Sequence record: NC_019768.1
Reading direction: 5' to 3' (one strand)
DNA: 41,468 bases
From: Escherichia phage HK106
Part shown: positions 14,442 through 29,595 of the stretch, piece after piece
How the letters are laid out: every line of letters begins with the position of its first letter
Numbering within the stretch: position 1 is the stretch's first letter
The notes under the pieces: model-generated
Told to the model about the DNA's origin: nothing
What the model saw: the letters and a program-made list of their open reading frames with translations, nothing else
The model's database searches: none
Program-made: the position numbers and the translations under genes

Positions 14442-17400
14442 ATGGCTACAGATAAAGTGTTAAAAGGCCGCAAGGGCGGCAGCTCAAGTTCCCGAACTCC
14501 TACCGAACAGCCTGATGATCTGCAATCTGTAGCGAAGGCAAAAATCCTCGTTGCGCTTGGGGAAGGTGAGTTTGCAGGGCAGCTCACCGGCAAAGATATC
14601 TACCTGGACGGAACAGCGCTGGAGAATGCTGACGGCTCCCAAAACTTCAGCGGGGTAACGTGGGAGTTTCGCGCGGGAACTCAGGCGCAAAAATATATTC
14701 AGGGTATTCCCGGTACCGAAAACGAGATCAGCGTAGGAACTGAGGTATCAAGTGCCACAGCCTGGACGCGCACGTTTACCAATACGCAGCTTTCAGCAGT
14801 TCGCCTGCGTCTTAAATGGCCCTCGCTTTTCAAACAGGAGGACGACGGCGATCTGGTGGGTTACTCGGTCAATTATGCAATTGACCTGCAGACGGACGGC
14901 GGCGCATGGCAGACGGTACTCAATACCAGCGTGACCGGAAAAACGACGTCTGGTTATGAGCGCAGCCACCGTATCGATTTACCGCAGGCTGGCAGCACCT
15001 GGACAATACGTCTGCGTAAGATTACCTCTGACGCCAACAGCGCGAAGATCGGCGACACGATGATGCTGCAGAGCTTCACCGAGGTGATTGACGCCAAACT
15101 GCGCTACCCGAACACCGCGCTGCTCTACGTCGAATTCGACTCAAGCCAGTTCAACGGCTCTATTCCTCAAATTTCATGCGAACCGCGCGGCCGCGTTATC
15201 CGCGTTCCAGATACCTACGACCCTGAAACCCGCACTTATAGCGGTACATGGACCGGTGCGTTTAAGTGGGCATGGACGGATAACCCTGCGTGGATTTTTT
15301 ACGACCTGGTTGTTTCTGACCGGTTCGGCCTTGGGCACCGTTTGACCGCTGCGAATATTGATAAATGGACGCTTTATCAGGTTGCTCAGTATTGTGATCA
15401 GATGGTACCAGACGGCAAAGGGGGCAACGGTACAGAACCACGTTATACCTGCAACGTGTACATTCAGGACCGGAACGACGCCTACACAGTCCTGCGTGAT
15501 TTTGCCGCTATCTTCCGTGGCATGACCTACTGGGGCGGGGATCAGATTGTGGCCCTGGCTGACATGCCGCGCGATGTTGATTACAGCTATACGCGCGCTA
15601 ACGTTGTTGGCGGTCGCTTCACCTATTCGAGCAGCACCACGAAAAGCCGCTACACCACAGCGCTGGTTTCATGGTCAGACCCGGGTAACGCTTATGCCGA
15701 CGCGATGGAGCCGGTATTTGAGCAGGCGCTGGTGGCGCGGTACGGCTTCAATCAGCTGGAAATGACAGCCATCGGCTGCACCAGGCAGTCAGAGGCGAAC
15801 CGAAAGGGGCGCTGGGGTATTCTCACCAATAACAAGGATCGCGTTGTTTCGTTTGATGTCGGGCTGGACGGAAACATTCCGCAGCCGGGCTACATCATCG
15901 CCGTGGCAGACGAGCTGCTTTCCGGAAAGGTTATGGGCGGCCGCATCAGCGCCGTTAACGGTCGCGTTATCAAACTTGACCGCGTAGCTGATGCAGCACC
16001 AGGTGATCGCCTTATTCTCAACCTACCTTCCGGAGCGTCGCAGAGCAGGACCATTCAGGCCGTGAACGGGGAATCAGTCACAGTCACCACGGCATACAGT
16101 GAGACGCCACAGGCCGAAGCTGTTTGGGTGGTTGAATCTGACGAGCTTTACGCGCAGCAGTATCGTGTTGTCAGCGTCTCCGACAACGGTGATGGCACTT
16201 TCTCAATCACCGGCGCATGGCACGACCCGGATAAATATGCCCGCATCGATACCGGAGCCATCATTGACCAGCGGCCGGTGAGCGTGATCCCGCCTGGTAA
16301 CCAGTCGCCGCCTGCGAACATCGTGATCAGCTCGTTTTCCGTGGTTCAGCAAAATATCAGCGTCGAAACAATGCGCGTGAGCTGGGACCAGGCGCAGAAC
16401 GCTATCGCCTATGAAGCGCAATGGCGCCGCAACGACGGGAACTGGGTTAACGTGCCGCGCACCTCCACCACGTCATTCGACGTCCCGGGGATTTATGCCG
16501 GGCGCTACCTGGTGCGGGTGCGCGCAATCAATGCCGCAGAAATTTCATCCGGATGGGGCTATTCAGAAGAGAAAACGCTGACGGGTAAAGTGGGCAATCC
16601 ACCGAAGCCTGTTGGCTTTATCGCCTCTGAAAACGTGGTGTTCGGTATCGAGCTGAACTGGGGATTCCCGGCGAATACCGACGACACGCTGAAGACGGAA
16701 ATTCAGTACAGCCTGACCGGTACTGAAGACGATGCCATGCTGCTGGCCGATGTGCCTTACCCGCAGCGCAAATATCAGCAGATGGGCCTTAAGGCTGGGC
16801 AGATTTTCTGGTACCGCGCGCAGCTGGTTGACCGCAGCGGTAACGAGTCAGGTTATACCGGCTGGGTTCGTGGGCAGGCCAGTATCGATGTTTCTGACAT
16901 CACAGATGTGATCCTTGAAGACATCAAAGGGTCTGAGACGTTCAAAGACCTGATCGAGAACGCTGTGGACAGCAATGAAAAAATTGCTGGCATGGCTGAC
17001 GACATCAAACAGGCCAATGATGAACTTGAGCAGCATGCGAAGGATATCGCCAAAAACGCCCAGGACGTCGGGAAGGTTCAGACCAGCGTTAATGAGCTTT
17101 CCAGCACGGTCGGGAATGTTTCGTCTTCACTCAGTCAGCTTGAGCAGACCGTTGCGACGGCTGATACCGCGCTGGGCCAGCGAATCGACAGCATCAGTGT
17201 GTCTATGGACGGCATGACGGGTGGGGTCAAGAACTCAGCCATTGCCATTATCCAGAACGGGCTGGCGCAGGTGGCTGCGCGTAAAACCCTGTCTGCATCG
17301 GTCGCCGGCAACAGCGCGAATCTGGACCGTATTGATGAGGTGATTGTCAACGACAGGGAGGCAACGGCGCGCTCGCTGCTTAGCCTGCAGACGGACGTCA

Positions 17401-17993
17401 ACGGCAACAAGGCATCCATCAATAGCCTGAATCAGACGTTCTCCGACTATCAGCAGGCTACGGCCACGCAGATAAACGGCATAACGGCGACGGTGAACGG
17501 GCATACCTCCGCCATCACCACTAACGCTCAGGCGATAGCCAACGTTAATGGCGACCTCAGCGCGATGTACAACATCAAGGTTGGCGTTTCCAGCAACGGT
17601 CAGTATTACGCCGCGGGGATGGGTATCGGCGTGGAGAATACGCCATCCGGCATGCAGTCGCAGGTTATCTTCCTGGCTGATCGCTTCGCCGTCACCACGG
17701 CAGCCGGAAATAGCGTGGCTTTGCCGTTTGTGATCCAGAATGGACAGACATTCATCCGGGCCAGTTTCATCCAGGACGGCACTATCAGCAACGCAAAGAT
17801 TGGTAATTTTATCCAGTCGAACAATTATGTTGCTGGTTCTGCTGGCTGGAAGCTTGATAAAGGGGGGACGTTTGAGAACTACGGTTCGACTGCTGGTGAG
17901 GGAGCCATGAAACTGACAAATCAGACGATCAGCGTCAAAGATGGCAGTAATGTTCTTAGGGTGCAGGTTGGCCGATTAACGGGAGTATTCTGA
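14442..17993 (+). CDS. host specificity protein J (central tail fibre / tip attachment protein)
   Basis: 1183 aa, colinear with lambda J through the N-terminal and central regions. Confidence 0.9.
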   Translation: MATDKVLKGRKGGSSSSRTPTEQPDDLQSVAKAKILVALGEGEFAGQLTGKDIYLDGTALENADGSQNFSGVTWEFRAGTQAQKYIQGIPGTENEISVGTEVSSATAWTRTFTNTQLSAVRLRLKWPSLFKQEDDGDLVGYSVNYAIDLQTDGGAWQTVLNTSVTGKTTSGYERSHRIDLPQAGSTWTIRLRKITSDANSAKIGDTMMLQSFTEVIDAKLRYPNTALLYVEFDSSQFNGSIPQISCEPRGRVIRVPDTYDPETRTYSGTWTGAFKWAWTDNPAWIFYDLVVSDRFGLGHRLTAANIDKWTLYQVAQYCDQMVPDGKGGNGTEPRYTCNVYIQDRNDAYTVLRDFAAIFRGMTYWGGDQIVALADMPRDVDYSYTRANVVGGRFTYSSSTTKSRYTTALVSWSDPGNAYADAMEPVFEQALVARYGFNQLEMTAIGCTRQSEANRKGRWGILTNNKDRVVSFDVGLDGNIPQPGYIIAVADELLSGKVMGGRISAVNGRVIKLDRVADAAPGDRLILNLPSGASQSRTIQAVNGESVTVTTAYSETPQAEAVWVVESDELYAQQYRVVSVSDNGDGTFSITGAWHDPDKYARIDTGAIIDQRPVSVIPPGNQSPPANIVISSFSVVQQNISVETMRVSWDQAQNAIAYEAQWRRNDGNWVNVPRTSTTSFDVPGIYAGRYLVRVRAINAAEISSGWGYSEEKTLTGKVGNPPKPVGFIASENVVFGIELNWGFPANTDDTLKTEIQYSLTGTEDDAMLLADVPYPQRKYQQMGLKAGQIFWYRAQLVDRSGNESGYTGWVRGQASIDVSDITDVILEDIKGSETFKDLIENAVDSNEKIAGMADDIKQANDELEQHAKDIAKNAQDVGKVQTSVNELSSTVGNVSSSLSQLEQTVATADTALGQRIDSISVSMDGMTGGVKNSAIAIIQNGLAQVAARKTLSASVAGNSANLDRIDEVIVNDREATARSLLSLQTDVNGNKASINSLNQTFSDYQQATATQINGITATVNGHTSAITTNAQAIANVNGDLSAMYNIKVGVSSNGQYYAAGMGIGVENTPSGMQSQVIFLADRFAVTTAAGNSVALPFVIQNGQTFIRASFIQDGTISNAKIGNFIQSNNYVAGSAGWKLDKGGTFENYGSTAGEGAMKLTNQTISVKDGSNVLRVQVGRLTGVF

Positions 17994-17994
17994 A

Positions 17995-18297
17995 ATGGCT
18001 TATGGAATACAGACCTGGGATGCTTCAGGAAAACCCAACAACTATGGCATCAAACCCGTTTCCGTCGTTGGGCGAATACAGCTGGCTGCCGGGCAAACCT
18101 CCGGCAGCTGGTCTTTTACGGTGCCCTCAGGAATGAAAGTTGGTTTTGTTCTTTCACTTGATGAAGGAGGTAACAGCGTAGGGCGGCGCATTGTCGCGTC
18201 AGGGAGCACAATAACCGTAAGCGCTGCATCTTCTGTAGGTCTGGGTAATTATCCGGCCTCAAAGTGTGAAGTGGTCGTTTTCATGGAGAAAGCATAA
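17995..18297 (+). CDS. hypothetical protein (tail operon, downstream of J)
   Basis: 100-aa ORF, ATG 2 nt after J stop; shares a W-D-x-S-G-K motif with the next ORF. Confidence 0.5.
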   Translation: MAYGIQTWDASGKPNNYGIKPVSVVGRIQLAAGQTSGSWSFTVPSGMKVGFVLSLDEGGNSVGRRIVASGSTITVSAASSVGLGNYPASKCEVVVFMEKA

Positions 18298-18935
18298 TGG
18301 CCGAATTTGGCGCGATGATATTAATGGACAACGGGAACCCATTTGTAACGCCCCAGTCAACGCCTTTTTGTCTTTACGGCAAGTACACTTTCAACTCCTC
18401 TGCTAATGGCAGTTCGCAGCAGGTTGCTCAGAATATTGCATTAAATGCTGACTACCCTGTGATGGTATTTATCAGGACCACAAATACCGCCCAGCCCACG
18501 CCAGTAATATCTTACCGGAACGGCGGAAATATATATGTCGCGGGGGTTAATCCCTATAACCAGAGCTTCACGTTAACCGCATATATTTTTGCCATATTTC
18601 CCCAGACGTTACCGAAATGGGGGATGGCCATCTGGGATTCGAGCGGGAAGCTGGTACTCACTAATGAGTCCCGCGTGCTGTCAGACTTGCAGACAATCGG
18701 AACGCCTGGAGCAAACGGCGGGATTAACATTGACCAGACGCTTGATGGTTCATGGGCAGTGGCTCCATCAAGGCTGGGGCAAGTGAACAGAAACGACGCT
18801 TACTCATCTTGTAGGTATTCAGGCACAAGTACAAGAATAAACGCCGGTACAGCCGCAAATACACCTGGCGGTGCTGGAGGGGTGATAAATAATGGAATTA
18901 TCCTGACAGCAATTAAAACAGACGCCTATGATTGA
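18297..18935 (+). CDS. hypothetical protein (tail operon, downstream of J)
   Basis: 212-aa ORF, TAATG overlap with the upstream ORF. Confidence 0.5.
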   Translation: MAEFGAMILMDNGNPFVTPQSTPFCLYGKYTFNSSANGSSQQVAQNIALNADYPVMVFIRTTNTAQPTPVISYRNGGNIYVAGVNPYNQSFTLTAYIFAIFPQTLPKWGMAIWDSSGKLVLTNESRVLSDLQTIGTPGANGGINIDQTLDGSWAVAPSRLGQVNRNDAYSSCRYSGTSTRINAGTAANTPGGAGGVINNGIILTAIKTDAYD

Positions 18936-19042
18936 TTGTTTTGAGCGATCAATAACAAATAATTTATCTATCTAATCAATTATATCCATCGATTATGTAT
19001 TGGTATCTTCGAAGCTACTGAATACCTCTGGATACTATCAAA

Positions 19043-19276
19043 ATGAAAAGGCTAATTATCTGCATAGCGGGCGCTTTAATGCTGTCTGGTTGCGCTGGTG
19101 TACTTGAGAAACAGAAACCGATTTGCAGCGGCACGGCATATATGGGTGGCCATGAGAATACCGTTATGATTTACGCCGTTCGAAAGCAAAACAACCAGAC
19201 GCAATACCGGGCCGGATATCCCTTTAACTGGCGCTGGGTAAGTGCGAACACATTCACAAGCACGACATGTAAATAA
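19043..19276 (+). CDS. small lipoprotein, Cor-like putative superinfection exclusion protein
   Basis: 77 aa; signal peptide with lipobox LSGC; AT-rich upstream region and own terminator; position downstream of J where cor is found in phi80/HK022-type phages. Confidence 0.5.
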   Translation: MKRLIICIAGALMLSGCAGVLEKQKPICSGTAYMGGHENTVMIYAVRKQNNQTQYRAGYPFNWRWVSANTFTSTTCK

Positions 19277-19294
19277 CTCATGATTTTCAATGCA

Positions 19295-19320
19295 AACCTC
19301 GCCTCGGCGGGGTTTTTTAT
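19295..19320 (+). terminator. intrinsic terminator
   Basis: CCTCGCC-tc-GGCGGGG followed by TTTTTTA. Confidence 0.6.
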
Positions 19321-19334
19321 TGCCTGGAGAAAAT

Positions 19335-20288
19335 ATGCTTTATAACACTGGAACCATCGCCATTAACGGAAACAGCGCCACCGGCACGGGCACGAACTGG
19401 ACGGCACCCGCCAGCCAGGTTCGCGCTGGCCAGACGATTATCGTGATGTCTAACCCGGTGCAGCTGTTTCAGATTTCATCCGTGAACAGCGCCACGTCAA
19501 TGACGGTTACTCCAGCTGCTTCCCCTGCGCTGAGCGGCCAGAAGTATGGAATTCTGGTATCAGACAATATCTCGGTTGATGGGCTGGCGCTGGCCATGTC
19601 GCAGCTTATCAAGGAGTATGACGAGAATATTGGTGCGTGGGAGACGTTCGCCACAACCTCAGCAAACCAAAGCATCACAGTTACCATCAACGGCACCGCC
19701 GTAACCATCCCAGGCATCGGTAAACTTGCGCAGAAAGGGAGCAACGGTGCGGTTACTGTCGCAGACGGCGGAACCGGCGCAACGAATGCCGCAGACGCTC
19801 GCACAAACCTTGGTTTGGGAGAAGGCTCTGCATTACCTGTTGGTGTCCCTGTTCCGTGGCCTTCCGCCACTCCGCCAACAGGCTGGCTGAAATGCAACGG
19901 TGCGGTTTTTTCTGCTGAAGAATACCCGGAACTGGCAAAGGCTTATCCAACAAATAAATTGCCAGATTTACGTGGTGAGTTTATTCGTGGCTGGGATGAC
20001 GGGCGTGGGGTCGATTCAGGGCGAGCGCTGCTGTCCGCACAAGGTGATGCTATAAGGGACATATCAGGGAAGCTCTTGGGACTTATGACCACTGCGGGAA
20101 GCCAGATGACAGCAGACGAGTGGGTAACAGGGGCATTTAATGCTGTATACGAAGGCGGCGCTGGTCAAACAACCTCATCGCCCGGTAGTAGGTATGACGT
20201 AGGTTTTTCCGCCGCCAGAGTTGTACCAACTGCGGAAGAAAACCGACCACGTAACATTGCATTTAACTACATTGTAAGGGCATCATGA
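19335..20288 (+). CDS. side tail fibre protein with C-terminal collar-like domain
   Basis: about 317 aa from the ATG at 19335 (SD GGAG); C-terminal motif LPDLRGEFIRGWDDGRGVDSGR typical of phage tail fibre collar domains; the track start 19290 lies inside the terminator. Confidence 0.8.
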   Translation: MLYNTGTIAINGNSATGTGTNWTAPASQVRAGQTIIVMSNPVQLFQISSVNSATSMTVTPAASPALSGQKYGILVSDNISVDGLALAMSQLIKEYDENIGAWETFATTSANQSITVTINGTAVTIPGIGKLAQKGSNGAVTVADGGTGATNAADARTNLGLGEGSALPVGVPVPWPSATPPTGWLKCNGAVFSAEEYPELAKAYPTNKLPDLRGEFIRGWDDGRGVDSGRALLSAQGDAIRDISGKLLGLMTTAGSQMTADEWVTGAFNAVYEGGAGQTTSSPGSRYDVGFSAARVVPTAEENRPRNIAFNYIVRAS

Positions 20289-20896
20289 TGACCACAAAAA
20301 AAATCACTTTGGATGAAAACGGATTTGCAACAGAAGCTGGCTTCATCACCGTTTACAACTACAGCGGTGAAACGCGGGAATATATTTCCACATCAACTGA
20401 ATATCTTGCCGTTGGTGTCGGTATCCCGGCATGTTCTTGTTTAGATGCACCAGTTACACATAAAGCTGGTTATGCAATCTGCCGTTCTGCAGATTTTAAC
20501 TCATGGGAATATGTGCCAGACCATCGCGGTGAAATCGTTTTTAGCACCGAAACAGGGGAATCAAAAGAAATCACAGCTCCGGGTGATTACCCTGATAATA
20601 CAACCACTATCGCCCCGTTAACCCCATACGATAAATGGGATGGTGAGAAATGGGTGACGGATACCGAGGCACAGCACGGCGCAGCAGTAGATGCAGCAGA
20701 AGCACAGCGCCAGTCGCTGATTGATACTGCAATGGCCTCCATCAGTCTGATTCAGCTGAAATTGCAGGCCGGACGTAAACTGACGCAGGCAGAAACAACC
20801 CGCCTTAACGCTGTGCTGGATTACATTGACGCGGTGACGGCAACAGATACCAGCACCGCGCCGGATGTCATCTGGCCTGAACTGCCGGAGGCGTAG
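20285..20896 (+). CDS. tail fibre assembly protein (Tfa)
   Basis: 203 aa, ATGA overlap with the fibre gene; Tfa-like sequence. Confidence 0.8.
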   Translation: MMTTKKITLDENGFATEAGFITVYNYSGETREYISTSTEYLAVGVGIPACSCLDAPVTHKAGYAICRSADFNSWEYVPDHRGEIVFSTETGESKEITAPGDYPDNTTTIAPLTPYDKWDGEKWVTDTEAQHGAAVDAAEAQRQSLIDTAMASISLIQLKLQAGRKLTQAETTRLNAVLDYIDAVTATDTSTAPDVIWPELPEA

Positions 20897-21224
20897 GCCA
20901 TTCAATATCTGGCGCACCGGAAGTATCGACCAGCTCCAGTGCGTCCAGTTGACATCCTCCACGCCCTGAAGGACGGGGTTTTACGGCGCACCGGATAAAT
21001 CCAAATGGAGTTTCGGGAGATAAATGAAACCGCAGCCACGTCGTATGCAAGAACGTGCTGCGGCTGGCTGGCGAACTTTCGATAGTGCGAGTATTGAATG
21101 ATTTCCAGCCGTTACCGATTTTACTATGTTTTCAGTAGAACGCTTAGACAAAACTGAGGCGCACAAAGCTTTGCACTGGACTGCAAGGTGTTGTGCTTCT
21201 CTGGAGTGCGATATGTTTGATGAC

Positions 21225-21262
21225 AAAAAATTAGCGCAAGAGGACAACAAATCACCTTGCGC
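21225..21262 (-). terminator. sib / tI-like hairpin terminator downstream of int
   Basis: GCGCAAG…CTTGCGC hairpin with a T-tract on the minus strand; same arrangement as lambda sib/tI next to attP. Confidence 0.5.
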
Positions 21263-21411
21263 TAATGCTCTGCTACAGGTCACTAATACTATCTAAGTAG
21301 TTGATTCATAGTGACTGGATATGTTGTGTTTTGTCGCATTATGTAGTCTATTTTTTAGACTAAATATATTGTAATGCATTGATATTAATGGTTTTTAATG
21401 TTTCACGTTCA

Positions 21412-21426
21412 GCTTTTTTATACTAA
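21412..21426. other. attP core, lambda type
   Basis: CAGCTTTTTTATACTAAGTTGG with AT-rich arm sequences on both sides, adjacent to int; core is present once and intact. Confidence 0.85.
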
Positions 21427-21499
21427 GTTGGCATTATAAAAAAGCATTGCTTATCAATTTGTTGCAACGAACAGGTCACTATCAGTCAAAATAAAATCA

Positions 21500-22570
21500 T
21501 TATTTGATTTCAATTTTGTCCCACTCCCTGCCTCTGTCATCACGATACTGTGATGCCATGGTGTCCGACTTATGCCCGAGAAGATGTTGAGCAAACTTAT
21601 CGCTTATCTGCTTCTCATAGAGTCTTGCAGACAAACTGCGCAACTCGTGAAAGGTAGGCGGATCCCCTTCGAAGGAAAGACCTGATGCTTTTCGTGCGCG
21701 CATAAAATACCTTGATACTGTGCCGGATGAAAGCGGTTCGCGACGAGTAGATGCAATTATGGTTTCTCCGCCAAGAATCTCTTTGCATTTATCAAGTGTT
21801 TCCTTCATTGATATCCCGAGAGCATCAACATGCAATGTTGTAGGTATGGCAATTTTTACGCCTGTTTTGCTTTGCTCGACATAAAGATAGCCATCTACGA
21901 TATCAGACCACTTCATTTCGCATAAATCACCAACTCGTTGCCCGGTAACAACAGCCAGTTCCATTGCAAGTCTGAGCCAACATGGTGATGATTCTGCTGC
22001 TTGATAAATTTTCAGGTATTCGTCAGCTGTAAGTCTTGATCTCCTTACCTCTGATTTTGCTGCGCGAGTGGCAGCGACCGGGTTTGTTGTTATATGGCCT
22101 TCAGCTATTGCCTCTCGGAATGCATCGCTCAGTGTTGATCTGATTAACTTGGCTGATGCCGCCTTGCCCTCGTCTATGTATCCATTGAGCATTGCCGCAA
22201 TTTCTTTTGTGGTGATGTCTTCAAGTGGAGCATCAGGCAGACCCCTCCTTATTGCTTTAATTTTGCTCATGTAATTTATGAGTGTCTTCTGCTTGATTCC
22301 TCTGCTGGCCAGGATTTTTTCGTAGCGATCAAGCCATGAATGTAACGTAACGGAATTATCACTGTTGATTCTCGCTGTCAGAGGCTTGTGTTTGTGCCCT
22401 GAAAATAACTCAATGTTGGCCTGTATAGCTTCAGTGATTGCGATTCGCCTGTCTCGGCCTAATCCAAACTCTTTACCCGTCCTTGGGTCCCTGTAGCAGT
22501 AATATCCATTGTTTCTTATATAAAGATTAGGGGGTAAATCCCGGCGCTCATGACTTCGCCTTCTTCCCAT
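21500..22570 (-). CDS. int: tyrosine integrase (lambda Int-like)
   Basis: 356 aa, matches lambda Int over its whole length as I recall it; overlaps xis. Confidence 0.95.
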   Translation of the reverse strand: MGRRRSHERRDLPPNLYIRNNGYYCYRDPRTGKEFGLGRDRRIAITEAIQANIELFSGHKHKPLTARINSDNSVTLHSWLDRYEKILASRGIKQKTLINYMSKIKAIRRGLPDAPLEDITTKEIAAMLNGYIDEGKAASAKLIRSTLSDAFREAIAEGHITTNPVAATRAAKSEVRRSRLTADEYLKIYQAAESSPCWLRLAMELAVVTGQRVGDLCEMKWSDIVDGYLYVEQSKTGVKIAIPTTLHVDALGISMKETLDKCKEILGGETIIASTRREPLSSGTVSRYFMRARKASGLSFEGDPPTFHELRSLSARLYEKQISDKFAQHLLGHKSDTMASQYRDDRGREWDKIEIK

Positions 22571-22766
22571 TTCTGATCCTCTTCAAAAGGCTACCTGTTA
22601 CTGGTCGATTTAAGTCAACCTTTACCGCTGATTCGTGGAACAGATACTCTCTTCCATCCTTAACCGGAGGTGGGAATATCCTGCACTCGCGTACCCATCG
22701 ACGAACTGTTTCAAGGCTTCTTGGGCGTCGCTGGCGAGCGTTCCACTCCTGAAGTGTCAAGTACAT
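22548..22766 (-). CDS. xis: excisionase (lambda Xis-like)
   Basis: 72 aa MYLTLQEWNARQRRPRSLETVRRWVRECRIFPPP…, overlaps int start. Confidence 0.95.
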   Translation of the reverse strand: MYLTLQEWNARQRRPRSLETVRRWVRECRIFPPPVKDGREYLFHESAVKVDLNRPVTGSLLKRIRNGKKAKS

Positions 22767-22790
22767 CGCAAAGTCTCCGCAATTACACGC

Positions 22791-22815
22791 AAGAAAAAAC
22801 CGCCATCAGGCGGTT
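22791..22815 (-). terminator. intrinsic terminator-like hairpin upstream of xis
   Basis: minus strand AACCGCC-tgat-GGCGGTT followed by TTTTTTCTT; overlaps the stop of the 55-aa ORF. Confidence 0.45.
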
Positions 22816-22973
22816 TGGTGTTCTTTCAGTTCTTCAATTCGAATATTGGTTACGTCTGCATGTGCTATCTGCGCCCACAGCATCCAGTGGTCATAGCAGT
22901 CGTTGATGTCCTCTGCTTCGATAACTCTGTTGAATGGCTCTCCATTCCATTCACCTGTGACTCGGAAGTGCAT
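22806..22973 (-). CDS. hypothetical 55-aa protein
   Basis: ATG with SD GGAGA 7 nt upstream; below the 60-aa track cut-off; hand-translated MHFRVTGEWNGEPFNRVIEAEDINDCYDHWMLWAQIAHADVTNIRIEELKEHQTA. Confidence 0.4.
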   Translation of the reverse strand: MHFRVTGEWNGEPFNRVIEAEDINDCYDHWMLWAQIAHADVTNIRIEELKEHQTA

Positions 22974-23030
22974 TTATCATCTCCATAAAACAAAACCCGC
23001 CGTAGCGAGTTCAGATAAAAGAAACCCGCA

Positions 23031-23831
23031 TTAAGCGGCGTCGGTGAATTCAAATAAAAAACCGGCTTGCGCCGGCTCTCTCATCTTTCTGTCTACCCAC
23101 GCTGATATCGATGGTGGGTGTACCTTTTCAATAGCTGCGCGAAGTACAGCTGTACGTGCCAGTTTGTCGGTAATCTCAGGAAATCGCTTCTCTGTCTTCG
23201 GTACGTTAACAGCAACATTAGTAGAATCCGCACTGGCGAACGGATACATACCAAGAACTCTCACGTCGAGCATTCGAAGACCATGAATTTTCACTTTCAA
23301 ATTACGATTGATATAAAGCTCAGTGAAAACTTCATCCATTCTCTGTTCCCACCATTTAGAGCGTATGTTCCTGTGTGGGCCGCAGCATCCAATCGCCACC
23401 CATTCACATTTTCCAGAAAGGCGTAAAAGACGTTCAATTGATTCGTCGGTATGCCAGACCGGAACCGCTTTTGATTTTAGCCAATCAGGAACCAACTCAA
23501 TCTGCTCGTCGTTTTCTTCCTCTGTCCCTTCGATAACATCAGGTATAAGAAACCATTCAATTCTGCTGAACCACTTCCCAACAAAGTCGTAGAATTTTGC
23601 TCGTCTCTTACTCCAGTCTACCGGAGTGCCTTTCTTTAATGCTTTCATCCAGTCGCTAAAAGCGCCGTTATCAAGGCGTATATCACAAGGGAACATGGCA
23701 ATCTTTTTCATCTGCTCTGGTCTTGCAAATGAAACAAAAGCCCCACCATCACGGTAAAGGGCTTTAATCAGCATATCTGTAGGGGCATGCTCATCCCCCC
23801 ATATTGGGCTGCCGTGAAAGTGGATGGTCAT
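23031..23831 (-). CDS. hypothetical protein, 266 aa, unknown function
   Basis: long uninterrupted ORF in the early-left operon next to xis; no family recognised from sequence. Confidence 0.6.
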   Translation of the reverse strand: MTIHFHGSPIWGDEHAPTDMLIKALYRDGGAFVSFARPEQMKKIAMFPCDIRLDNGAFSDWMKALKKGTPVDWSKRRAKFYDFVGKWFSRIEWFLIPDVIEGTEEENDEQIELVPDWLKSKAVPVWHTDESIERLLRLSGKCEWVAIGCCGPHRNIRSKWWEQRMDEVFTELYINRNLKVKIHGLRMLDVRVLGMYPFASADSTNVAVNVPKTEKRFPEITDKLARTAVLRAAIEKVHPPSISAWVDRKMREPAQAGFLFEFTDAA

Positions 23832-23959
23832 ATTATCCCCATATAAAAGAAATCCCCGCGAGTGCGAGGATTGTTATTGTCTTTGCTTCGTGCATTTGTC
23901 GCACTTTCGGCACCATCCAGATAGGCACATCCGTCCGCAATTAACACATATAGGCCACA

Positions 23960-24241
23960 TCATTTTTCCTCTTTTGGTTTATGAATCTGAATGGTCATGC
24001 CGCTTTGAGTGGTGACTACAATGACAGAACCAGGCTGAAGGCTGTTAAGATTGAATGCTTCGTAAAACGAATCCAATGCCAGTGCTTTTTTATTCTTTCG
24101 GTTCCACCAACGCCATCCCTTGCTACAGGCTACACTGACAATCCACTGCCCACTCCTGTAAGCCATATAAAACCAGATGAGCAAAACCTGAAGGAATGCT
24201 ATCCAGTCAATAATCGTATATTTCGCGAAGGAGTCCATCAT
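23960..24241 (-). CDS. small membrane protein, unknown function
   Basis: 93 aa from ATG at 24241 (SD AGGAGG, ATGA overlap with the upstream gene); one hydrophobic helix (IIDWIAFLQVLLIWFYMAY). Confidence 0.5.
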   Translation of the reverse strand: MMDSFAKYTIIDWIAFLQVLLIWFYMAYRSGQWIVSVACSKGWRWWNRKNKKALALDSFYEAFNLNSLQPGSVIVVTTQSGMTIQIHKPKEEK

Positions 24242-25056
24242 TTCGCCTCCTGCGGCGGTTCTGGTAGCGGCATCCAGTGGGTTACTCCATGCCATATACC
24301 AGTTAAGGTTTCAAACCTTGGCTCTCTGCCTTTCTGTGTCTTGGCATATTCATTCCTTGTATATACGCATTGTCTAACTGCATATCCATTCCATCCAATA
24401 ACTGTTTGTCTAATTTCAGGCATTCGCTCACTACAGCTTATCCAACCATCCTGAGTTACCGGAGAATTGCCAGACAGCTCGTTCAACTTGTAAGTTTGGC
24501 TTACAGGTTCGGCTTCCAGTTCTGCAATGCGCTTCTCTGTGGCTTCCAGCTTCTCGCGCATATCATCAACGTACTCGACCAGAGATCCGCCAGCAGGAAT
24601 TTCGCACTCCTCGACCAGTTGGAAGTAGATATCAGCTGCGGACCGTGTGTTGCTATGCCTAGCGTCGCCCATCTCACCTTCACGAAGAGCATCGCGTTCT
24701 GCGGTAAGATTGGCTATTTTGCTGTCTTTGCCTTCCAGCTCAACACGCAGTTTCCCTACCGTTAGCGCAATTTCCTCGTTCTCCTGGTCACGGCGTTTGA
24801 TGTATTGCTGGTTTCTTTCCCGTTCATCCAGCAACGCCTGCACTACTTCAGGGTTGAAAGCTGCGATATAACGCGCGTTATTCTCTGCGTTTTCCTGTCC
24901 ATCAAAGCCGGTCCATTTGATAACGTCTTCACATCGTTTATCACCGGGTGTATGCACCGCATATGTACCAGTACCCGACGAAATAAATGCGACCCATTCG
25001 CCTTGTGTTGCCTGTTTTGCTATCTCACGCAGTGCCTGGTAATTAATTTCGCTCAC
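24238..25056 (-). CDS. Ead/Ea22-like protein with C-terminal DUF551-like domain
   Basis: GTG start at 25056 with SD AGGAGG; N-terminus VSEINYQALREIAKQATQGEW typical of Ea22-like proteins; central coiled coil; C-terminal DGWISCSERMPE region. Confidence 0.6.
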   Translation of the reverse strand: MSEINYQALREIAKQATQGEWVAFISSGTGTYAVHTPGDKRCEDVIKWTGFDGQENAENNARYIAAFNPEVVQALLDERERNQQYIKRRDQENEEIALTVGKLRVELEGKDSKIANLTAERDALREGEMGDARHSNTRSAADIYFQLVEECEIPAGGSLVEYVDDMREKLEATEKRIAELEAEPVSQTYKLNELSGNSPVTQDGWISCSERMPEIRQTVIGWNGYAVRQCVYTRNEYAKTQKGREPRFETLTGIWHGVTHWMPLPEPPQEAK

Positions 25057-25276
25057 TGGTTGCCTCCTTTGCTCGCTGATTCCACTCAGCTCTAACCTCT
25101 GAATAAAAAATCGCGCAGTCATTTCCAGGAGCTGCATATTTGCTACCAGATTGAGCGCGACACGTACCGCATCGAACGAAATAGAATCGACCGCCAGAGC
25201 CATATTCAGGGTGATCTGCTTCGCTGGCAACGTGCGCTGCGCCGCCACAGAATGGACATGGTAGTAGGTTGCTCAT
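25043..25276 (-). CDS. Lar-family restriction alleviation-like protein
   Basis: 77 aa from ATG at 25276 (ATGA overlap); CPFCGG … CGTC zinc-ribbon pattern and AEWNQRA motif. Confidence 0.55.
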   Translation of the reverse strand: MSNLLPCPFCGGAAHVASEADHPEYGSGGRFYFVRCGTCRAQSGSKYAAPGNDCAIFYSEVRAEWNQRAKEATSERN

Positions 25277-25749
25277 GAATGCACTCTCTTGCGAAGTTGG
25301 TCTGCACAATGCAGCAGGGCGTCCGTCGCTTCTTTCACCGTAACGATATCGCCATCGTCCAGCCCGGCAACCGTCGCGTCCTTAACGAACACCGAGCAAA
25401 GGTCATTAAACGCCTGCGCCCGTACTTCAGCCAGAAAAGCATCGGTAGCTGGAGTTTCAGTAACATCATCTTCCCATTCGCTAAACTCCTCACGACAAAA
25501 GTCATTAAATTCCTTCTCAGATTGCTTAAGCGATGTATTTTCAGCAGCCATCTTCGCGCATTTAGCCTCAAGGTTATCAATCGTGATTCCAGCAGAACGA
25601 CACTCCCGCAACGCAGTTTCCAGTTTTGATTCAAGCTCACCGAACTTACGCACCAGATATTCAGCGTTTGTTTCGTTAACCTTTAAATCTCGTGGAATGC
25701 ATTTACCTTTCAGAAATCCATCCATCTCAATTAGTGTCATTTGTTTCAT
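25273..25749 (-). CDS. hypothetical protein, about 158 aa
   Basis: ORF with ATGA coupling to the upstream gene; coiled-coil rich; no family recognised. Confidence 0.5.
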
Positions 25750-25928
25750 TTCTTCCCACTCCGCCACATTGCATTCAGATATTTGTTGTCATTAACAGAA
25801 CCGAAACTCTTTCTCTTAAGCAATTCCTCTCTCGATGGCATTGGCTTTACGCGTTGGCGAATAATCATTTCTGCCGGAAGAATGCCGGGATTGTATGCAA
25901 GTCCTCTCATGGTAAATTCCTCAGTCAT
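25746..25928 (-). CDS. hypothetical small protein (start uncertain)
   Basis: short ORF between two better supported genes; several candidate ATGs, one with SD GAGGAA. Confidence 0.3.
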
Positions 25929-26214
25929 TACTGATAGCGCCATAGCGTGAGCGGTAATTACGCAGGCGCGGGTCAATTTCAGGGAAGTGGGTATATGTGG
26001 CTTTGCGGAATGGTCGGATTGATGTCTGGTAAATTCGCTCTCGTTCTTCTTTCTCTGCAAGCCATATACAGTGGCGAAATTCCTTTTCCTCTTTCGTTTC
26101 CTGCGGTAGCGACATTATCCGATCGTAGTTTTTTCTGAATTTATCCAGCACCTCCGATACGGAATTGCCGGAACATCGGCGTGGGTCATCCTCACCATAC
26201 AGAGGCGCTGGCAT
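25921..26214 (-). CDS. hypothetical 97-aa protein (position and size reminiscent of P22 Abc2, unverified)
   Basis: ATG with SD AAGGA; lies downstream of erf/ssb in the recombination block. Confidence 0.45.
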
Positions 26215-26237
26215 AATGGAATCCTTATTTTTCTATA

Positions 26238-26621
26238 TCAGAATGGGATGGAATCGTCGTATACAGGAGTGTTCTGCTGGTTACTACTTTGCTGCTGCGG
26301 GCCATTTCCTGAAGCTGCAAATCCAATCTTTGCATTCAGTAATTCAAGAGTGATTGATTGACCATTTTGCCCCTGATAAACATCAACCCTGATGTTTTCT
26401 CCGGTAATTTCAACAATGCCTCCTTCAACCAGAACGCTACGGTAGTAATCCGCTTGCGCTCCCGGCTTGGCAAATACAACGGCGCTGTAGTTTGTCCATT
26501 CTTTCTTTTTTGTCTGGCGATCGTAATACTGAACGCCAGCACGGATGTTGAATCCGATATTTTCCCCGGCCTGAAACTCTCTTACGGGCTTGTTTAGTCT
26601 TACAGTAATCGAATGTGCCAT
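26238..26621 (-). CDS. ssb: single-stranded DNA-binding protein (short OB-fold SSB with acidic C-terminal tip)
   Basis: 127 aa from ATG at 26621 (TAATG overlap with erf); C-terminus …PVYDDSIPF resembles the conserved SSB tail DDDIPF. Confidence 0.6.
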   Translation of the reverse strand: MAHSITVRLNKPVREFQAGENIGFNIRAGVQYYDRQTKKKEWTNYSAVVFAKPGAQADYYRSVLVEGGIVEITGENIRVDVYQGQNGQSITLELLNAKIGFAASGNGPQQQSSNQQNTPVYDDSIPF

Positions 26622-27226
26622 TAAGCAGCCGCTCCTTCTAATTCGTCTCGTCTGATGTTGTAAACGTCCTGCGCTTTGTGCTGCTCCGGTGTGCCTTCGA
26701 GCATCTTCCACGCTTTGGCGAACGCCTGTTTAAGCTCTTCCACGGTGTTTTTCTGCAATGCTGCGTCAGTGAATGCTTTTAGAACCTGTTCAGGTGTAGG
26801 TGATGGTTTTGATTGCTTTGCTGCTGCGTTCTGCTGATGTTTATGCTCGTCTGTATCTGCATCTTTCGCATCATCTATGCCGAACAAACCATTGAGGCAA
26901 TACTTGCGTGCATAAGAGCTTGTAGCTCCAGTAACTTGTGCAGAATCCATTCCTTTCTTGCTTTCTTCCTCTCGTGCAAGAGCGGTTGCCGTATGACTGT
27001 TTTCGCCATCGGTAATAGTTGCCGTGGCTTTCACGTAATACCGATCACCAATCAACACAACTTCATCGCTGATTGATAAAAACAGGCCATTCAGTAACGG
27101 CTTAACGCCTTCAAGAATGTCTTCGCAGCTTCTGTATTTATATTTGCCGAATGAGTTGTACTGATTCTTTGGCGCGTTCAGATTCTCCTGAATAGCTGCC
27201 AGTCTTGCGTAAAATTCTTTGCTCAT
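26621..27226 (-). CDS. erf: Erf-family single-strand annealing protein
   Basis: 201 aa from ATG at 27226; MSKEFYARLAAIQENLNAPKNQYNSFGKYKYRSCEDILEG… closely resembles P22 Erf as I recall it. Confidence 0.85.
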   Translation of the reverse strand: MSKEFYARLAAIQENLNAPKNQYNSFGKYKYRSCEDILEGVKPLLNGLFLSISDEVVLIGDRYYVKATATITDGENSHTATALAREEESKKGMDSAQVTGATSSYARKYCLNGLFGIDDAKDADTDEHKHQQNAAAKQSKPSPTPEQVLKAFTDAALQKNTVEELKQAFAKAWKMLEGTPEQHKAQDVYNIRRDELEGAAA

Positions 27227-27482
27227 ATGATTGTTCTCAGAATGGACACGGCCCAAGGAAATAACGCTGATTTAATACTTCGACTCGGGACAAATTAAGG
27301 CATACCCGCATTCCTTCGCGGTCGCCATTATGGCGATACCAGAGAGCTTTCTGCGTGTACATGCGTCTCTGTAACTTGCTCTCCTTCACTGTGGTTGCAA
27401 GTGACATGAATATCTCCTTCGTTACCGATTAATTCTTTCATCTGACGAATGAATTCTTCGTCTGACCAGTTATCTGCAAAAC

Positions 27483-27635
27483 TCATTTCCTGCGATACCA
27501 CGGAAGGTTGATAGCTGATTTCATCGCTTTATTTGCTTCAAGCCACATTTTGGAATCACCAATAAATCTGGCTATTACTGCTTTGTTCTGTGCAGCACGA
27601 AGCATCTGGTGATTGATGGCTATTTCATTGCGCAT
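27483..27635 (-). CDS. Kil-like host-killing / cell division inhibitor protein
   Basis: 50-aa hand-translated ORF (MRNEIAINHQMLRAAQNKAVIARFIGDSKMWLEANKAMKSAINLPWYRRK) overlapping the cIII 3' end; resembles lambda Kil core; below track cut-off. Confidence 0.5.
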   Translation of the reverse strand: MRNEIAINHQMLRAAQNKAVIARFIGDSKMWLEANKAMKSAINLPWYRRK

Positions 27636-27754
27636 AACGCCTCCAGTTGTTTCTTTGCTGCTCTGATTAATTGTTTAACTCGGCGTGATAATTCAGATTC
27701 GTGCGGGTAGAAAGCGGACATGACGCCGCTACCCGCGAGCTGAAAGTGCATCAT
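27620..27754 (-). CDS. cIII: cIII-like protease inhibitor
   Basis: 44 aa from ATG at 27754 with SD AAGGAG; MMHFQLAGSGVMSAFYPHESELSRRVKQLIRAAKKQLEAL… cIII/C3 pattern. Confidence 0.7.
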   Translation of the reverse strand: MMHFQLAGSGVMSAFYPHESELSRRVKQLIRAAKKQLEALCAMK

Positions 27755-27818
27755 GGGTAACTCCTTATATTTGATTGCATAACGAAAACGCCTCGAGTGA
27801 AGCGTTATTGGTATGCAT

Positions 27819-27844
27819 ATAAAAAAGCCCTCACACTGGAGGGC
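27819..27844 (-). terminator. intrinsic terminator (tL-like) upstream of cIII
   Basis: minus strand GCCCTCC-agtgt-GAGGGC followed by TTTTTTAT. Confidence 0.45.
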
Positions 27845-27980
27845 AAAGAAGATTTCCAATAATCAGAACAAGTCGGCTCCTGTTTAGTTACGAGCGACAT
27901 TGCTCCGTGTATTCACTCGTTGGAATGAATACACAGTGCAGTGTTTATTCTGTTATTTATGCCAAAAATAAAGGCCACCA

Positions 27981-28232
27981 TCAGGCAGCCTTGTTGTAAA
28001 TGTTGCAGGTATCAAGTAAGTAATTAGATGGAGCGCCATAAATTATGAATTCATCGTTTGTCGGGTCCATCTCCATCTCTTGGCCTATTGCCATTCTTGC
28101 GTCAGTGTCATCAGCGGCGAAGCATAAAACAGCCCACGCACCCATTGTTTTAAAAAGAACTGCAATTGGCTGTGGTTTTACTGAATTTGCGTTAGCGCGA
28201 AAATCACAAATCGCACTTTCATGAAATTCCAT
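27981..28232 (-). CDS. hypothetical 83-aa protein
   Basis: ATG with SD GAGGTGA; located between N and cIII. Confidence 0.55.
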   Translation of the reverse strand: MEFHESAICDFRANANSVKPQPIAVLFKTMGAWAVLCFAADDTDARMAIGQEMEMDPTNDEFIIYGAPSNYLLDTCNIYNKAA

Positions 28233-28290
28233 ATATCACCTCAAATAAGTGGTTTGCTGCCTAATTTTATTTTCTGGCGACCAACACAAG

Positions 28291-28674
28291 TCACCTTGCT
28301 GTCAGTTGTTTTGATTTCCTGTAGCCTGCCGCGTAAAGAGCTACATTTGGAAGACATACACCAGTTTCTGGTTGCCTATGCCCAAACTCATTCGCGTACA
28401 CAATGGCCGCTCTCTCCAGATTGCGTCTGTATTCTTTCTGTTGCCAGATCACGTCCTGTGCCATGAACTTAATTGGCTTAGCGTCTTCTATGCGCTCAGG
28501 CGTTTCGTGAGTACCTTTAGCCTGAATCTGCGCTCTGCTTAGAGTAGGGCGGTGTAATACTTCTGAACTTATTGCTTCTTCGCGGGCCAGTACGCCGTTA
28601 GCTAATGCCTTTGCCTTTAAACGCTCACGACGACGAGAACGTGAATTGCCTTTGAACTGAGTTCTGCGTGTCAT
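28291..28674 (-). CDS. N-family antiterminator, P22 gene 24-like
   Basis: 127 aa, SD AGGAGG; N-terminal arginine-rich motif (GNSRSRRRERLKAKALA) and C-terminal …LPNVALYAAGYRKSKQLTAR resembling P22 gp24. Confidence 0.75.
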   Translation of the reverse strand: MTRRTQFKGNSRSRRRERLKAKALANGVLAREEAISSEVLHRPTLSRAQIQAKGTHETPERIEDAKPIKFMAQDVIWQQKEYRRNLERAAIVYANEFGHRQPETGVCLPNVALYAAGYRKSKQLTAR

Positions 28675-28839
28675 ATAGACCTCCTGATGAACTTTGGTGG
28701 TGTGGTAGGTGGGAGACCCATTTCGACCTGTTTCGGCCTACTTCAATTCGGCAATAGTCCCGCAGGCCTCGCCGCTTTACGTGCGACATATTCCCGTCCA
28801 TGAACCCTTCACCACACCCCAAAGTTCACTTTGGTTATT

Positions 28840-28854
28840 GCGCTTTGTCAGCGC
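28840..28854 (-). promoter_or_regulatory. nutL boxB-like hairpin (P22 type)
   Basis: minus-strand GCGCTGACAAAGCGC in the leader between PL and the N-like gene. Confidence 0.5.
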
Positions 28855-28922
28855 CGTAGATTCATCTCTGAATCGTTGTATATTCACCGCCCTGGTGAGT
28901 AGTGCGTCCTGCTGATGTGTTT

Positions 28923-28985
28923 AGTATCACCGCCAGTGGTATTTATGTCAACACCGCCAGAGATAATTTATCACCGCAGATGGTT
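28923..28985 (-). promoter_or_regulatory. OL1-OL2-OL3 operators and PL promoter (lambda type)
   Basis: TATCACCGCCAGTGGTA (28925-28941), CAACACCGCCAGAGATA (28949-28965), TATCACCGCAGATGGTT (28969-28985); minus-strand -35 TTGACA and -10 GATACT. Confidence 0.85.
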
Positions 28986-29136
28986 ATCTGTATGTTTTTT
29001 ATATAGATTTATTTTTTTGCAGGGGTGTGTGGCTTGGGAGGTGATCGAGAGATCTGAATTGCGATGTTTAGTGAGTTGTATCTATTAATTTTCAAATAAA
29101 TACAATTGGTTATGTGTTTTGGGGCGAACGTGAGGC

Positions 29137-29162
29137 AAAGAAAACCCGGCGCGGTGGCCGGG
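29137..29162 (-). terminator. tImm-like intrinsic terminator ending the cI-side operon
   Basis: minus strand CCCGGCC-accgc-GCCGGG followed by TTTTCTTTG, 7 nt after the stop of the 141-aa ORF. Confidence 0.55.
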
Positions 29163-29169
29163 TTGGAGA

Positions 29170-29595
29170 TTATTTTCTAGATGATGTTGGGGACCAAGGT
29201 AACGTTATAGTATCTAACACTGTGTTTTTGAACATATTTTCAAAAACTGTTTTTGTACATACATATACATAATTTTCAAAAAACCAAGCATTTTCATTAT
29301 AAAAATCCTCAGTTACTTCTTCATCGAGGTCACACTCAAATGTTAGTGTCAAGGTAGCCTCTGCCTTGAACAATACATCCTCACCATCATCAAAATCTTT
29401 TTTATCGCGAGGGAAACCAGTTATCGATGGCTTAACTTCAATAAAGAGCCAATTTCCATCTTCATCTTTTTGAGGAACAACGTGATGCTCAGAAAATTTT
29501 AAGCTATATTTTCCGCCTTCAGAATTATCACTGTCGTCGATAAAAAGGGAAGAACCCTCGAGATCAAATCCCTTAAAGCGAATTTTATCAAGCAT
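29170..29595 (-). CDS. hypothetical acidic protein, 141 aa, third gene of the hicAB cassette
   Basis: ATG at 29595 overlaps the hicB stop (TGATG); strongly acidic (about 29 D/E against 15 K/R); AT-rich codon usage; no family recognised. Confidence 0.6.
   Translation of the reverse strand: MLDKIRFKGFDLEGSSLFIDDSDNSEGGKYSLKFSEHHVVPQKDEDGNWLFIEVKPSITGFPRDKKDFDDGEDVLFKAEATLTLTFECDLDEEVTEDFYNENAWFFENYVYVCTKTVFENMFKNTVLDTITLPWSPTSSRK

Follow-up and report, generated by a model that had tools for sequence, protein, structure and literature searches.

The interval 20897-22766 of the Escherichia phage HK106 record (NC_019768.1; the whole stretch of 41,468 nucleotides that was analysed is referred to here as the window) extends from the base after the stop codon of tfa (20285-20896) to the start codon of xis. 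On its minus strand it carries int (21500-22570), which encodes a lambda-type heterobivalent tyrosine integrase of 356 aa, and xis (22548-22766), which encodes a 72-aa winged-helix excisionase, lies just upstream of int and overlaps its start by 23 bp, as it does in lambda. The phage attachment site occupies 21278-21503, and a hairpin corresponding to the tI terminator and sib element of lambda is found at 21224-21272.

An initial sequence-only reading had taken Int and Xis to match lambda, and alignment bears this out: identity extends to 353 of 356 residues for Int (the substitutions being H164P, A245T and I248V) and to 71 of 72 for Xis (G59S). Int is a single residue apart from the HK97 enzyme (A245T), while Xis is 100% identical to the Xis proteins of HK97 and HK022. 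Profile and structure searches point in the same direction. Int matches Pfam PF00589 (E 1.7e-40) and, over residues 1-69, PF09003 (Bacteriophage lambda integrase, Arm DNA-binding domain; E 7e-33); it matches the lambda Int chains of PDB 5j0n, 1z1g and 1z1b over its full length and 1kjk over residues 1-64. Xis matches Pfam PF07825 (E 3.9e-41) as well as PDB 1pm6 and 1lx8. NCBIfam was uninformative, with matches to Int that were of Xer type and all sub-threshold and no useful match to Xis. The catalytic residues R212, K235, H308, R311 and H333 and the nucleophile Y342 are invariant when Int is aligned with those of lambda, HK97 and HK022. At the nucleotide level int differs from lambda at 13 positions, and the differences are strongly biased to synonymous sites, with a pN/pS of 0.11 against lambda and of 0.02 against both HK97 and 434.

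Regulatory elements around int and xis

The pI promoter drives int expression as lysogeny is established. Its CII-binding repeat, TTGC-N6-TTGC, lies on the minus strand at 22779-22792 (TTGCGTGTAATTGC) and is identical to the lambda sequence from 29104; the homologous site of phage 434 is annotated as a CII-controlled pI promoter. A symmetric, G+C-rich terminator-like hairpin, found by a terminator scan at 22797-22816, forms the right boundary of the att-int-xis cassette, and the HK97 and 434 records label its homologue a terminator. The lambda-like block extends further to the right, where a 55-aa ORF on the minus strand (22806-22973) is homologous to lambda orf55 (lambdap35). It belongs to phrog_676, a family of unknown function, and is also present in 434, HK022 and ev099 and absent from HK97.

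The tI/sib hairpin is read on the int-sense (minus) strand, is followed by a U-run, and lies to the left of P1, across the core from int. It departs from lambda -195..-148 in its apical part alone, by one substitution and one inserted nucleotide, and in a fold comparison lambda and HK97 give this same long hairpin; the homologous 50 bp of HK97 are annotated as 'sib retroregulation site'. The retroregulation element is apparently retained, and RNase III cleavage is predicted. A scan of the whole window at the Rfam gathering threshold gave no match, and there is no curated RNA family for sib. We considered whether the additional lambda-like sequence at 21158-21215 is needed for lambda's sib and rejected this idea: the hairpin is contained wholly within 21224-21272 and does not depend on that stretch, since it is also present in HK97, which is devoid of it. 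A small ORF overlapping the hairpin (21126-21296, plus strand, 56 aa) belongs to no PHROG family and was not taken as a gene.

The attP site and its specificity

The 15-bp lambda common core, GCTTTTTTATACTAA, has a single exact match in the window, at 21412-21426 on the plus strand. It includes the 7-bp overlap TTTATAC, in which strand exchange takes place. No second or degenerate copy of the kind expected of attL or attR was found with up to two mismatches anywhere in the window, where 0.07 chance matches would be expected. From P1 through P'3, attP (strandless) equals lambda -142..+83; we delimited its sub-sites by the lambda definitions and compared them site by site with lambda, HK97, 434 and ev099. 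Neither insertions nor deletions occur along this length, so that attP measures 226 bp in the window as in lambda, and the five arm sites stand at lambda's distances from the core. Most sites are free of mismatches to lambda: P1 (21278-21287), the IHF site H1 (21294-21306), P2 (21308-21317), the Xis site X1 (21320-21332), the inverted core-type sites C (CAGCTTT, 21410-21416) and C' (TAAGTTG, 21424-21430) with the overlap O between them (21417-21423), the IHF site H' (21438-21464), P'1 (21473-21482), P'2 (21483-21492) and P'3 (21493-21503). The 'int 4' binding feature of the lambda record (27814-27854) was set aside as a guide to P'1-3, since it is misaligned with their motifs, placed at 27785-27815, and the motifs were used instead. 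The inventory and order of sites in lambda attP have been described (PMC4880445).

Divergence is concentrated in the P arm between X1.5 and C, where 21 substitutions relative to lambda are found in all, each position being counted once. Four of the seven positions of X1.5 (21333-21339) differ, one of the 15 in X2 (21340-21354), three of 15 in the Fis site (21346-21360; one in common with X2, with the outer G and C kept), four of 11 in the spacer between Fis and H2, two of 13 in H2 (21372-21384) and eight of 25 in the spacer between H2 and C. Both mismatches in H2 fall at N positions of the IHF consensus, WATCAANNNNTTR (TATCAATGCATTA on the opposite strand). Because of these 21 substitutions, Xis/Fis cooperativity could differ quantitatively from lambda; the P-arm allele would probably be equivalent to lambda's.

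These substitutions, together with the three differences in Int, could be read as signs that the cassette has decayed and has lost its function in integration or excision. Such decay is very improbable. Both reading frames are intact and int shows the low pN/pS given above, the specific protein-binding sites are either intact or keep their consensus, and their spacing is unchanged. The variants of the P arm are held in common with HK97 and 434, both known temperate phages, and HK97 forms lysogens at this very junction. Moreover, most of the set formed by HK97, 434, ev099 and one integrated prophage has P164, T245 and V248, which makes reference lambda Int the outlier.

A further possibility is that specificity has shifted as in HK022, so that the phage would integrate elsewhere than at lambda attB. 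This deserves attention, as about five substitutions can switch the site of a lambda-family Int, and the HK022 cassette is homologous (77% DNA identity) and encodes the same Xis. Work by Dorgai, Yagil and Weisberg in 1995 reportedly identified N99, S282, G283, R287 and E319 as the five Int specificity residues. Elsewhere N99 and H329 are named as specificity determinants (PMC10863862) and 'five key residues' are mentioned (PMC6007267); our literature search by name for the five specificity substitutions found only N99D. The window has the lambda residue at each of these positions (N99, S282, G283, R287, E319, H329), unlike HK022 (D, P, K, K, R and R, respectively), and core, overlap, C and C' are likewise those of lambda. 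The sequence-only reading would have been overturned by a core or Int differing from lambda at specificity-determining positions, and no such difference was found. A scan of the whole window for tRNA and tmRNA genes gave no match, which rules out a tRNA-type att site.

Integrated relatives give indirect support for the lambda site. A prophage of E. coli IR53017 is 100% identical to the window from the first core base (21412) through xis (1389 bp) and is flanked by ybhC on the attL side and by ybhB-bioA on the attR side, which is the position of lambda attB; the identical int/core/P' allele has thus integrated at the canonical site, whereas in the P arm the prophage has another allele again, with 88.8% identity to the window. 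Among the 25 best chromosomal matches, 17 start exactly at the core (21412), and about 2,000 of 5,426 complete E. coli genomes contain a match to the int-xis-att stretch. Primers for the junctions of HK97 lysogens have been published (PMC11237771; PMC12671112). The phage primers of these studies match the window exactly, the host primer abuts the core, and the primers also fit attL of IR53017. Altogether, a shift in specificity is most unlikely, and the phage is predicted to lysogenise at lambda attB between ybhC and ybhB-bioA, in agreement with the gal-bio location proposed by the sequence-only reading.

Genome form and cassette boundaries

The window ends in ...CCGCCGCCAAA, which is the right end of HK97, joined to GTTTGAATTT...GTTGACAT, which corresponds to HK97 nt 1-49. 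These are the final 49 bases of the window, which begins at the terS ATG (HK97 nt 50). The closed cos junction accordingly lies at 41410-41430 (approximately 41419/41420), and closure of cos inside the window indicates that the record gives a complete phage genome in circular form, opened at the start codon of terS, for which the attP form is to be expected. This agrees with the single core flanked by complete P and P' arms, from which phage form had been proposed at the outset, and the absence of a second core at up to two mismatches rules out an integrated prophage.

The host genome is that of an HK97-like (Hendrixvirinae) siphovirus with an HK97-type head and tail arm. The head genes had been assigned to the HK97 type from the letters alone, and the alignments uphold this: window 1-14397 is 98.0% identical to HK97 and 14409-17862 is 95.9% identical, and most of 1-21029 is HK97-like at 93-98%, while blastn found no match to lambda of at least 80 bp within 1-21029. 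Identity to mEpX1, mEp234 and HK75 reaches 98-99% over 1-19820.

Similarity to lambda begins at 21158, and window 21158-23027 aligns to lambda 27471-29339 with 96.7% identity over 1870 bp. A joint between HK97-like and lambda-like sequence had been placed at around 20900-21230. The start of lambda similarity does fall within that range, but the joint is not a crossover from HK97 to lambda, because HK97 carries the same module and its similarity (97.7%) continues through 21216-22803. Between tfa and the integration module lies a shared non-coding left flank (21030-21223, strandless) with several mosaic breakpoints, at 21124/21125, 21132/21133, 21157/21158, 21187 and 21223. It stands ahead of different integration modules. 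HK75 is 88% identical to window 21021-21223 and then continues into another integrase, mEp234 is 92% identical to 21030-21187 and has a 2851-type attP, Stx phages are 98% identical to 21040-21187, and the lambda b region (24162-24265) matches 21030-21132 at 89%. HK97 lacks 91 bp on the left side of the sib hairpin (window 21125-21215). The boundary recurring from phage to phage falls at 21216-21224, on the left margin of the tI/sib hairpin; on the right, the similarity of HK97, 434 and HK022 stops at 22797-22803. HK75 and mEp234 have their structural arm and left flank in common with the window and differ in their integrases and att sites, and the cassette is apparently one of several interchangeable integration modules that occupy the interval from tfa to the early left operon in HK97-like phages which otherwise hardly differ. 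A cassette of about 1.6 kb with the same hairpin-delimited boundaries is found in lambda-like, HK97-like and P22-like genomes.

One could go further and propose both that the P-arm allele with its 21 substitutions was selected to retune the dependence of excision on Xis and Fis, rather than arising by drift, and that the flank at 21030-21223 and the hairpins at 21224-21272 and 22797-22816 are dedicated recombination linkers by which lambda-type, HK75-type and 2851-type cassettes are swapped in HK97-like phages. We regard this combined proposal as unlikely.

The lambda-like block might also be an artefact: laboratory lambda DNA could have been joined to the genome during assembly, or the phage could be a lambda/HK97 hybrid made by engineering. 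Contamination with lambda is frequent in laboratories, and a record labelled phi80 (FN582354) has the same left joint together with a lambda-type P arm, which hints at circulating hybrid stocks. Contamination would, however, give approximately 100% identity to reference lambda, whereas the block reaches just the 96.7% reported above, with 13 differences in int; the 100% identity is instead to an allele of a wild E. coli prophage. Both flanks are continuous with sequence common to other natural phages and HK97 has the same arrangement, so that we see hardly any likelihood of an artefact.

Predicted function and comparison with known phages

Taken together, window 21224-22816 is very probably a complete lambda-type integration/excision cassette, comprising tI/sib, the 226-bp attP, int, xis and the CII-dependent pI, in a complete and circularly represented HK97-like genome. 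This integration kit is intact and almost certainly functional. After infection, as the near-identity to lambda suggests, CII would activate pI within the start of xis and thereby lead to the synthesis of Int without Xis. The N-terminal domain of Int would bind the arm sites and its C-terminal domains the C and C' core sites, while IHF would bend the DNA at H1, H2 and H'. The resulting intasome is expected to capture bacterial attB (CTGCTTTTTTATACTAA...) between ybhC and ybhB-bioA, and strand exchange over TTTATAC would generate attL and attR. Upon induction, the pL transcript would yield both Int and Xis, and binding of Xis at X1, X1.5 and X2, with the help of Fis, would re-bend the P arm and drive excision. 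In the unintegrated phage, read-through of tI/sib from pL would probably generate a target for RNase III and so destabilise int mRNA (retroregulation); sib and int would be parted by integration.

At lambda attB the phage would be expected to compete with prophages of lambda, 434 and HK97, or to recombine with them. Att tools, primers and Int-based cloning systems developed for lambda and HK97 should work unchanged on it. It adds one more clean case of modular exchange in lambdoid phages and leaves current understanding unchanged. The suggestion that the mosaic is novel does not hold: a lambda-type cassette in an HK97-like genome is already known from HK97 itself, the record of which annotates int, xis, sib and an 'attachment site core; identical to lambda att site core'.

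HK97 (AF069529 / NC_002167, nt 21035-22621) has its cassette in the corresponding place, bounded by tfa and the early left operon, and in the same genome type. It agrees with the window in the core, the P' arm and every Int, IHF and X1 site, and the P arms differ by a few single bases in the part from X1.5 to H2. HK97 lacks the orf55 block (window 22804-23027), and its lambda-like stretch measures approximately 1.59 kb, compared with approximately 1.87 kb in the window. In lambda (NC_001416), the tI/sib hairpin and orf55 are conserved with the window, whereas the structural arm shows no DNA-level relationship and a b region of 3.2 kb (ea31, ea59; nt 24266-27470) stands in place of 25 bp (21133-21157). 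Phages 434 and ev099 carry the same cassette with its left boundary at 21215-21221 and 97.6-98.0% identity to the window; like the window they have the '434/HK97-type' P-arm allele and Int P164/T245/V248, but their modules reside in lambda-like rather than HK97-like genomes. Unlike the window, 434 combines the C' variant TAAGTAG with Int S129, and ev099 has Int K264. The homologous cassette of HK022 lies in an HK97-like genome within the same boundaries (21221-22803) and has the same architecture, yet its identity to the window is no higher than 77% for DNA and 75% for Int, and its different core specificity goes along with D99, P282, K283, K287, R319 and R329, none of which is found in the window.

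Integrase and excisionase genes

The segment 20897-22766 opens at the first base past the end of tfa (20285-20896), the tail-fibre assembly gene, whose stop codon it adjoins, and closes with the start codon of an ORF of 72 aa. This ORF is xis (22548-22766, minus strand), and the 356-aa ORF at 21500-22570 on the same strand is int. Both had been called lambda-like from sequence alone, and the proteins bear this out: Int is identical to lambda Int at 353 of 356 residues (H164P, A245T and I248V being the changes) and Xis to lambda Xis at 71 of 72, the latter being 100% identical to Xis of HK97 and HK022. Int contains the Pfam domains PF00589 and PF09003, the lambda-specific arm-DNA-binding domain, and aligns along its whole length with the solved chains 5j0n, 1z1g and 1z1b of lambda Int; Xis corresponds to PF07825 and to the PDB entries 1pm6 and 1lx8. 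P164, T245 and V248 are the majority alleles among HK97, 434, ev099 and one integrated E. coli prophage, and reference lambda is the outlier at these residues. Codon changes in int number 9 synonymous and 3 non-synonymous relative to lambda, and 15-16 synonymous and 1 non-synonymous relative to 434 and HK97 (pN/pS 0.02-0.11); with changes so overwhelmingly synonymous, the gene is under purifying selection.

Lambda-type specificity had been named beforehand as the point on which the reading could fail. A four-way Int alignment reveals the lambda residues in the window Int at N99, S282, G283, R287, E319 and H329, where HK022, which integrates at a site other than that of lambda, has D, P, K, K, R and R; the catalytic residues R212, K235, H308, R311, H333 and Y342 are invariant. 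The exact five specificity residues were reportedly listed by Dorgai, Yagil and Weisberg in 1995. Lambda and HK022 specificities are set apart by 'five key residues' (PMC6007267), and the determinants include N99 and H329 (PMC10863862).

The attachment site and its regulatory elements

The core GCTTTTTTATACTAA occurs in a single copy on the plus strand (21412-21426) of the 41,468-bp window, which holds no second copy even when 2 mismatches are tolerated; the core is thus single, as had been proposed. The protein-binding sites of lambda attP were placed on an alignment that joins the window to lambda, HK97, 434 and ev099. The inventory comprises P1, H1, P2, X1, X1.5, X2, Fis, H2, C, C', H' and P'1-3 (PMC4880445). 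P1, H1, P2, X1, C, O, C', H', P'1, P'2 and P'3 are identical to lambda, and the P1-to-P'3 spacing is free of indels and measures 226 bp in both phages, so that distances and helical phasing are kept. H2 has 2 differences, both where the IHF consensus has N, X2 has 1 mismatch, the Fis site 3 and X1.5 differs at 4 of 7 positions; with 12 more substitutions in the Fis-H2 and H2-C spacers, 21 positions differ in total between X1.5 and the C site. Decay of the P arm was considered and rejected, since very similar variants are present in HK97, 434 and ev099, which marks the aligned P arm as a natural '434/HK97-type' allele. This allele may change the quantitative dependence on Xis and Fis. In the lambda record NC_001416.1, the feature 'int 4' (27814-27854) does not coincide with the P'1-P'3 arm sites, placed by motif at 27785-27815, probably because of a legacy annotation offset.

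To the left of P1, the tI/sib hairpin (21224-21272, minus strand) is conserved and folds as in lambda and HK97; its differences from lambda, 1 substitution and 1 inserted nucleotide, are both in the apical part. The pI CII box TTGCGTGTAATTGC (22779-22792, minus strand), directly upstream of the xis start codon, is identical to lambda, and a terminator-like hairpin (22797-22816) lies at the right end of the module. An extra hairpin is predicted at 21159-21200 (minus strand), just past tI/sib on the int-sense strand; it is kept in lambda (27471-27528) and deleted in HK97. We infer from this near-identity, backed by natural and published junctions, that the module would follow the textbook lambda pathway of Int, IHF, Xis and Fis, with CII-pI control and sib retroregulation.

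Phage form and integration site

The window starts at the terS ATG (HK97 nt 50) and ends with the HK97 right end fused to HK97 nt 1-49 (the last 49 bases of the window), cos being closed at ~41419/41420 and thus inside the window (41410-41430). The record is a phage genome, complete, circularised and circularly permuted rather than linear from cos to cos, and its single attP is intact; attP rather than integrated prophage form is hence both correct and expected.

When 21300-22800 was queried against complete E. coli genomes, matches were found in 2069 of 5426, and 17 of the best 25 begin exactly where the core does, at query base 113 (window 21412). The prophage of E. coli IR53017 (NZ_CP064103.1) shows 100% identity to the window over the 1389 bp that run from the core, by way of the P' arm and int, to the end of xis. 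One of its ends reads ...TGAATCCGTTGAAGCCT, the core GCTTTTTTATACTAA and GTTGGCATTA..., directly downstream of ybhC; at the opposite end the core is followed by CTTTAGCGAAACGGG, adjoining ybhB-bioA. These junctions place the prophage at the canonical attB of lambda, between gal and bio. Two papers detect HK97 lysogens by PCR over 'the known phage-host junctions', in which attBF primes on the host side and HK97_lys_R and HK97_lys_R2 prime on the phage side (PMC11237771, PMC12671112). The 3 final bases of attBF, found at 5984-6003 of one IR53017 locus (L004), are the first three of the core, and both phage primers have exact matches in the window, at 22771-22790 and 21526-21544. The published PCR lends independent experimental support to this site, and together with the IR53017 junctions it supports the prediction that the window phage would integrate there. 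In the IR53017 prophage (loci L004 and L006) the P arm has diverged further, being 88.8% identical to that of the window, and the C site at attR is the variant CAACTTT. The prophage also has a P22-like tailspike, so that the cassette occurs with a third kind of structural arm as well.

Mosaic boundaries, neighbouring genes and known relatives

Whole-window blastn against the complete lambda and HK97 genomes confirms the non-lambda, HK97-type structural arm: HK97 matches 1-14397 at 98.0%, 14409-17862 at 95.9%, 19334-20053 at 92.8% and 20217-21124 at 96.3%, and no lambda match of at least 80 bp occurs in 1-21029. Lambda 27471-29339 aligns to 21158-23027 (96.7% over 1870 bp, megablast and blastn). 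The HK97 match resumes at 21216-22803 (97.7%), so HK97 similarity does not end at the onset of lambda similarity; int-xis-att is lambda-like, yet equally present in HK97. A joint formed by HK97/lambda crossover is therefore rejected; what stands is the lambda onset at 21158, and the sequence-only reading was essentially right except in this framing. Relative to HK97, the window has 91 additional bases on the left (21125-21215) and an orf55 block on the right (22804-23027), both lambda-like. Relative to lambda, 21030-21132 resembles b-region 24162-24265 (89%), which makes the lambda ea31-ea59 segment (~3.2 kb) an indel at 21133-21157. Between window 21030-21157 and lambda 24162-27470, this block corresponds to only 25 bp of the window, either through moron-like insertion in lambda or through deletion in the window phage.

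The left match begins at 21215-21221 in HK97, 434, ev099 and HK022, and the right break lies at 22797-22803 in HK97, 434 and HK022. HK75, with a different integrase, has the left flank in common as far as 21223 and diverges beyond it; for mEp234, whose attP is 2851-type and whose integrase also differs, and for the Stx phages, the shared part reaches 21187. The cassette is therefore bounded by the tI/sib and 22797-22816 hairpins, and HK97-like phages that are nearly identical carry one or another of several integration modules at this locus, this cassette among them.

Phi80 has a different att site. It is thus unexpected that FN582354.1, a record labelled 'phage phi80 partial sequence 5' end', ends (2982-3341) in a sib hairpin and P arm of lambda type (P1, H1, P2, X1, X2), which may reflect a hybrid stock; this stretch is 96% identical to window 21020-21381, and the record is the only one with the window's exact left joint.

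The region 23028-25554 is absent from both HK97 and lambda. It holds, directly right of the lambda-like block, a 266-aa ORF (23031-23831, minus strand) that matches phrog_887, 'queuine tRNA-ribosyltransferase' (E 9e-102), but nothing in Pfam or NCBIfam. Its product appears to be a DpdA/Tgt-like 7-deazaguanine transglycosylase of phage type, and may serve in DNA modification. On the other side, a 77-aa lipoprotein ORF (19043-19276, plus strand; MKRLIICIAGALMLSGC...) matches phrog_1119, the family of the superinfection exclusion protein Cor. HK75, mEp234 and phi80 have homologues that are annotated as cor, and the phi80 record states that the protein blocks FhuA, which suggests a FhuA-dependent phage. 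A lambda-type immunity region appears to accompany lambda-type integration, as 30668-31692 shares 97.7% identity with the lambda stretch that holds cI, the OR operators and cro (37231-38255), and 98.7% with the homologous region of HK97.

The HK97 GenBank record itself annotates sib, int, xis and an 'attachment site core; identical to lambda att site core'. A lambda-type module on an HK97-type arm is already known from HK97, and the combination is therefore not new.
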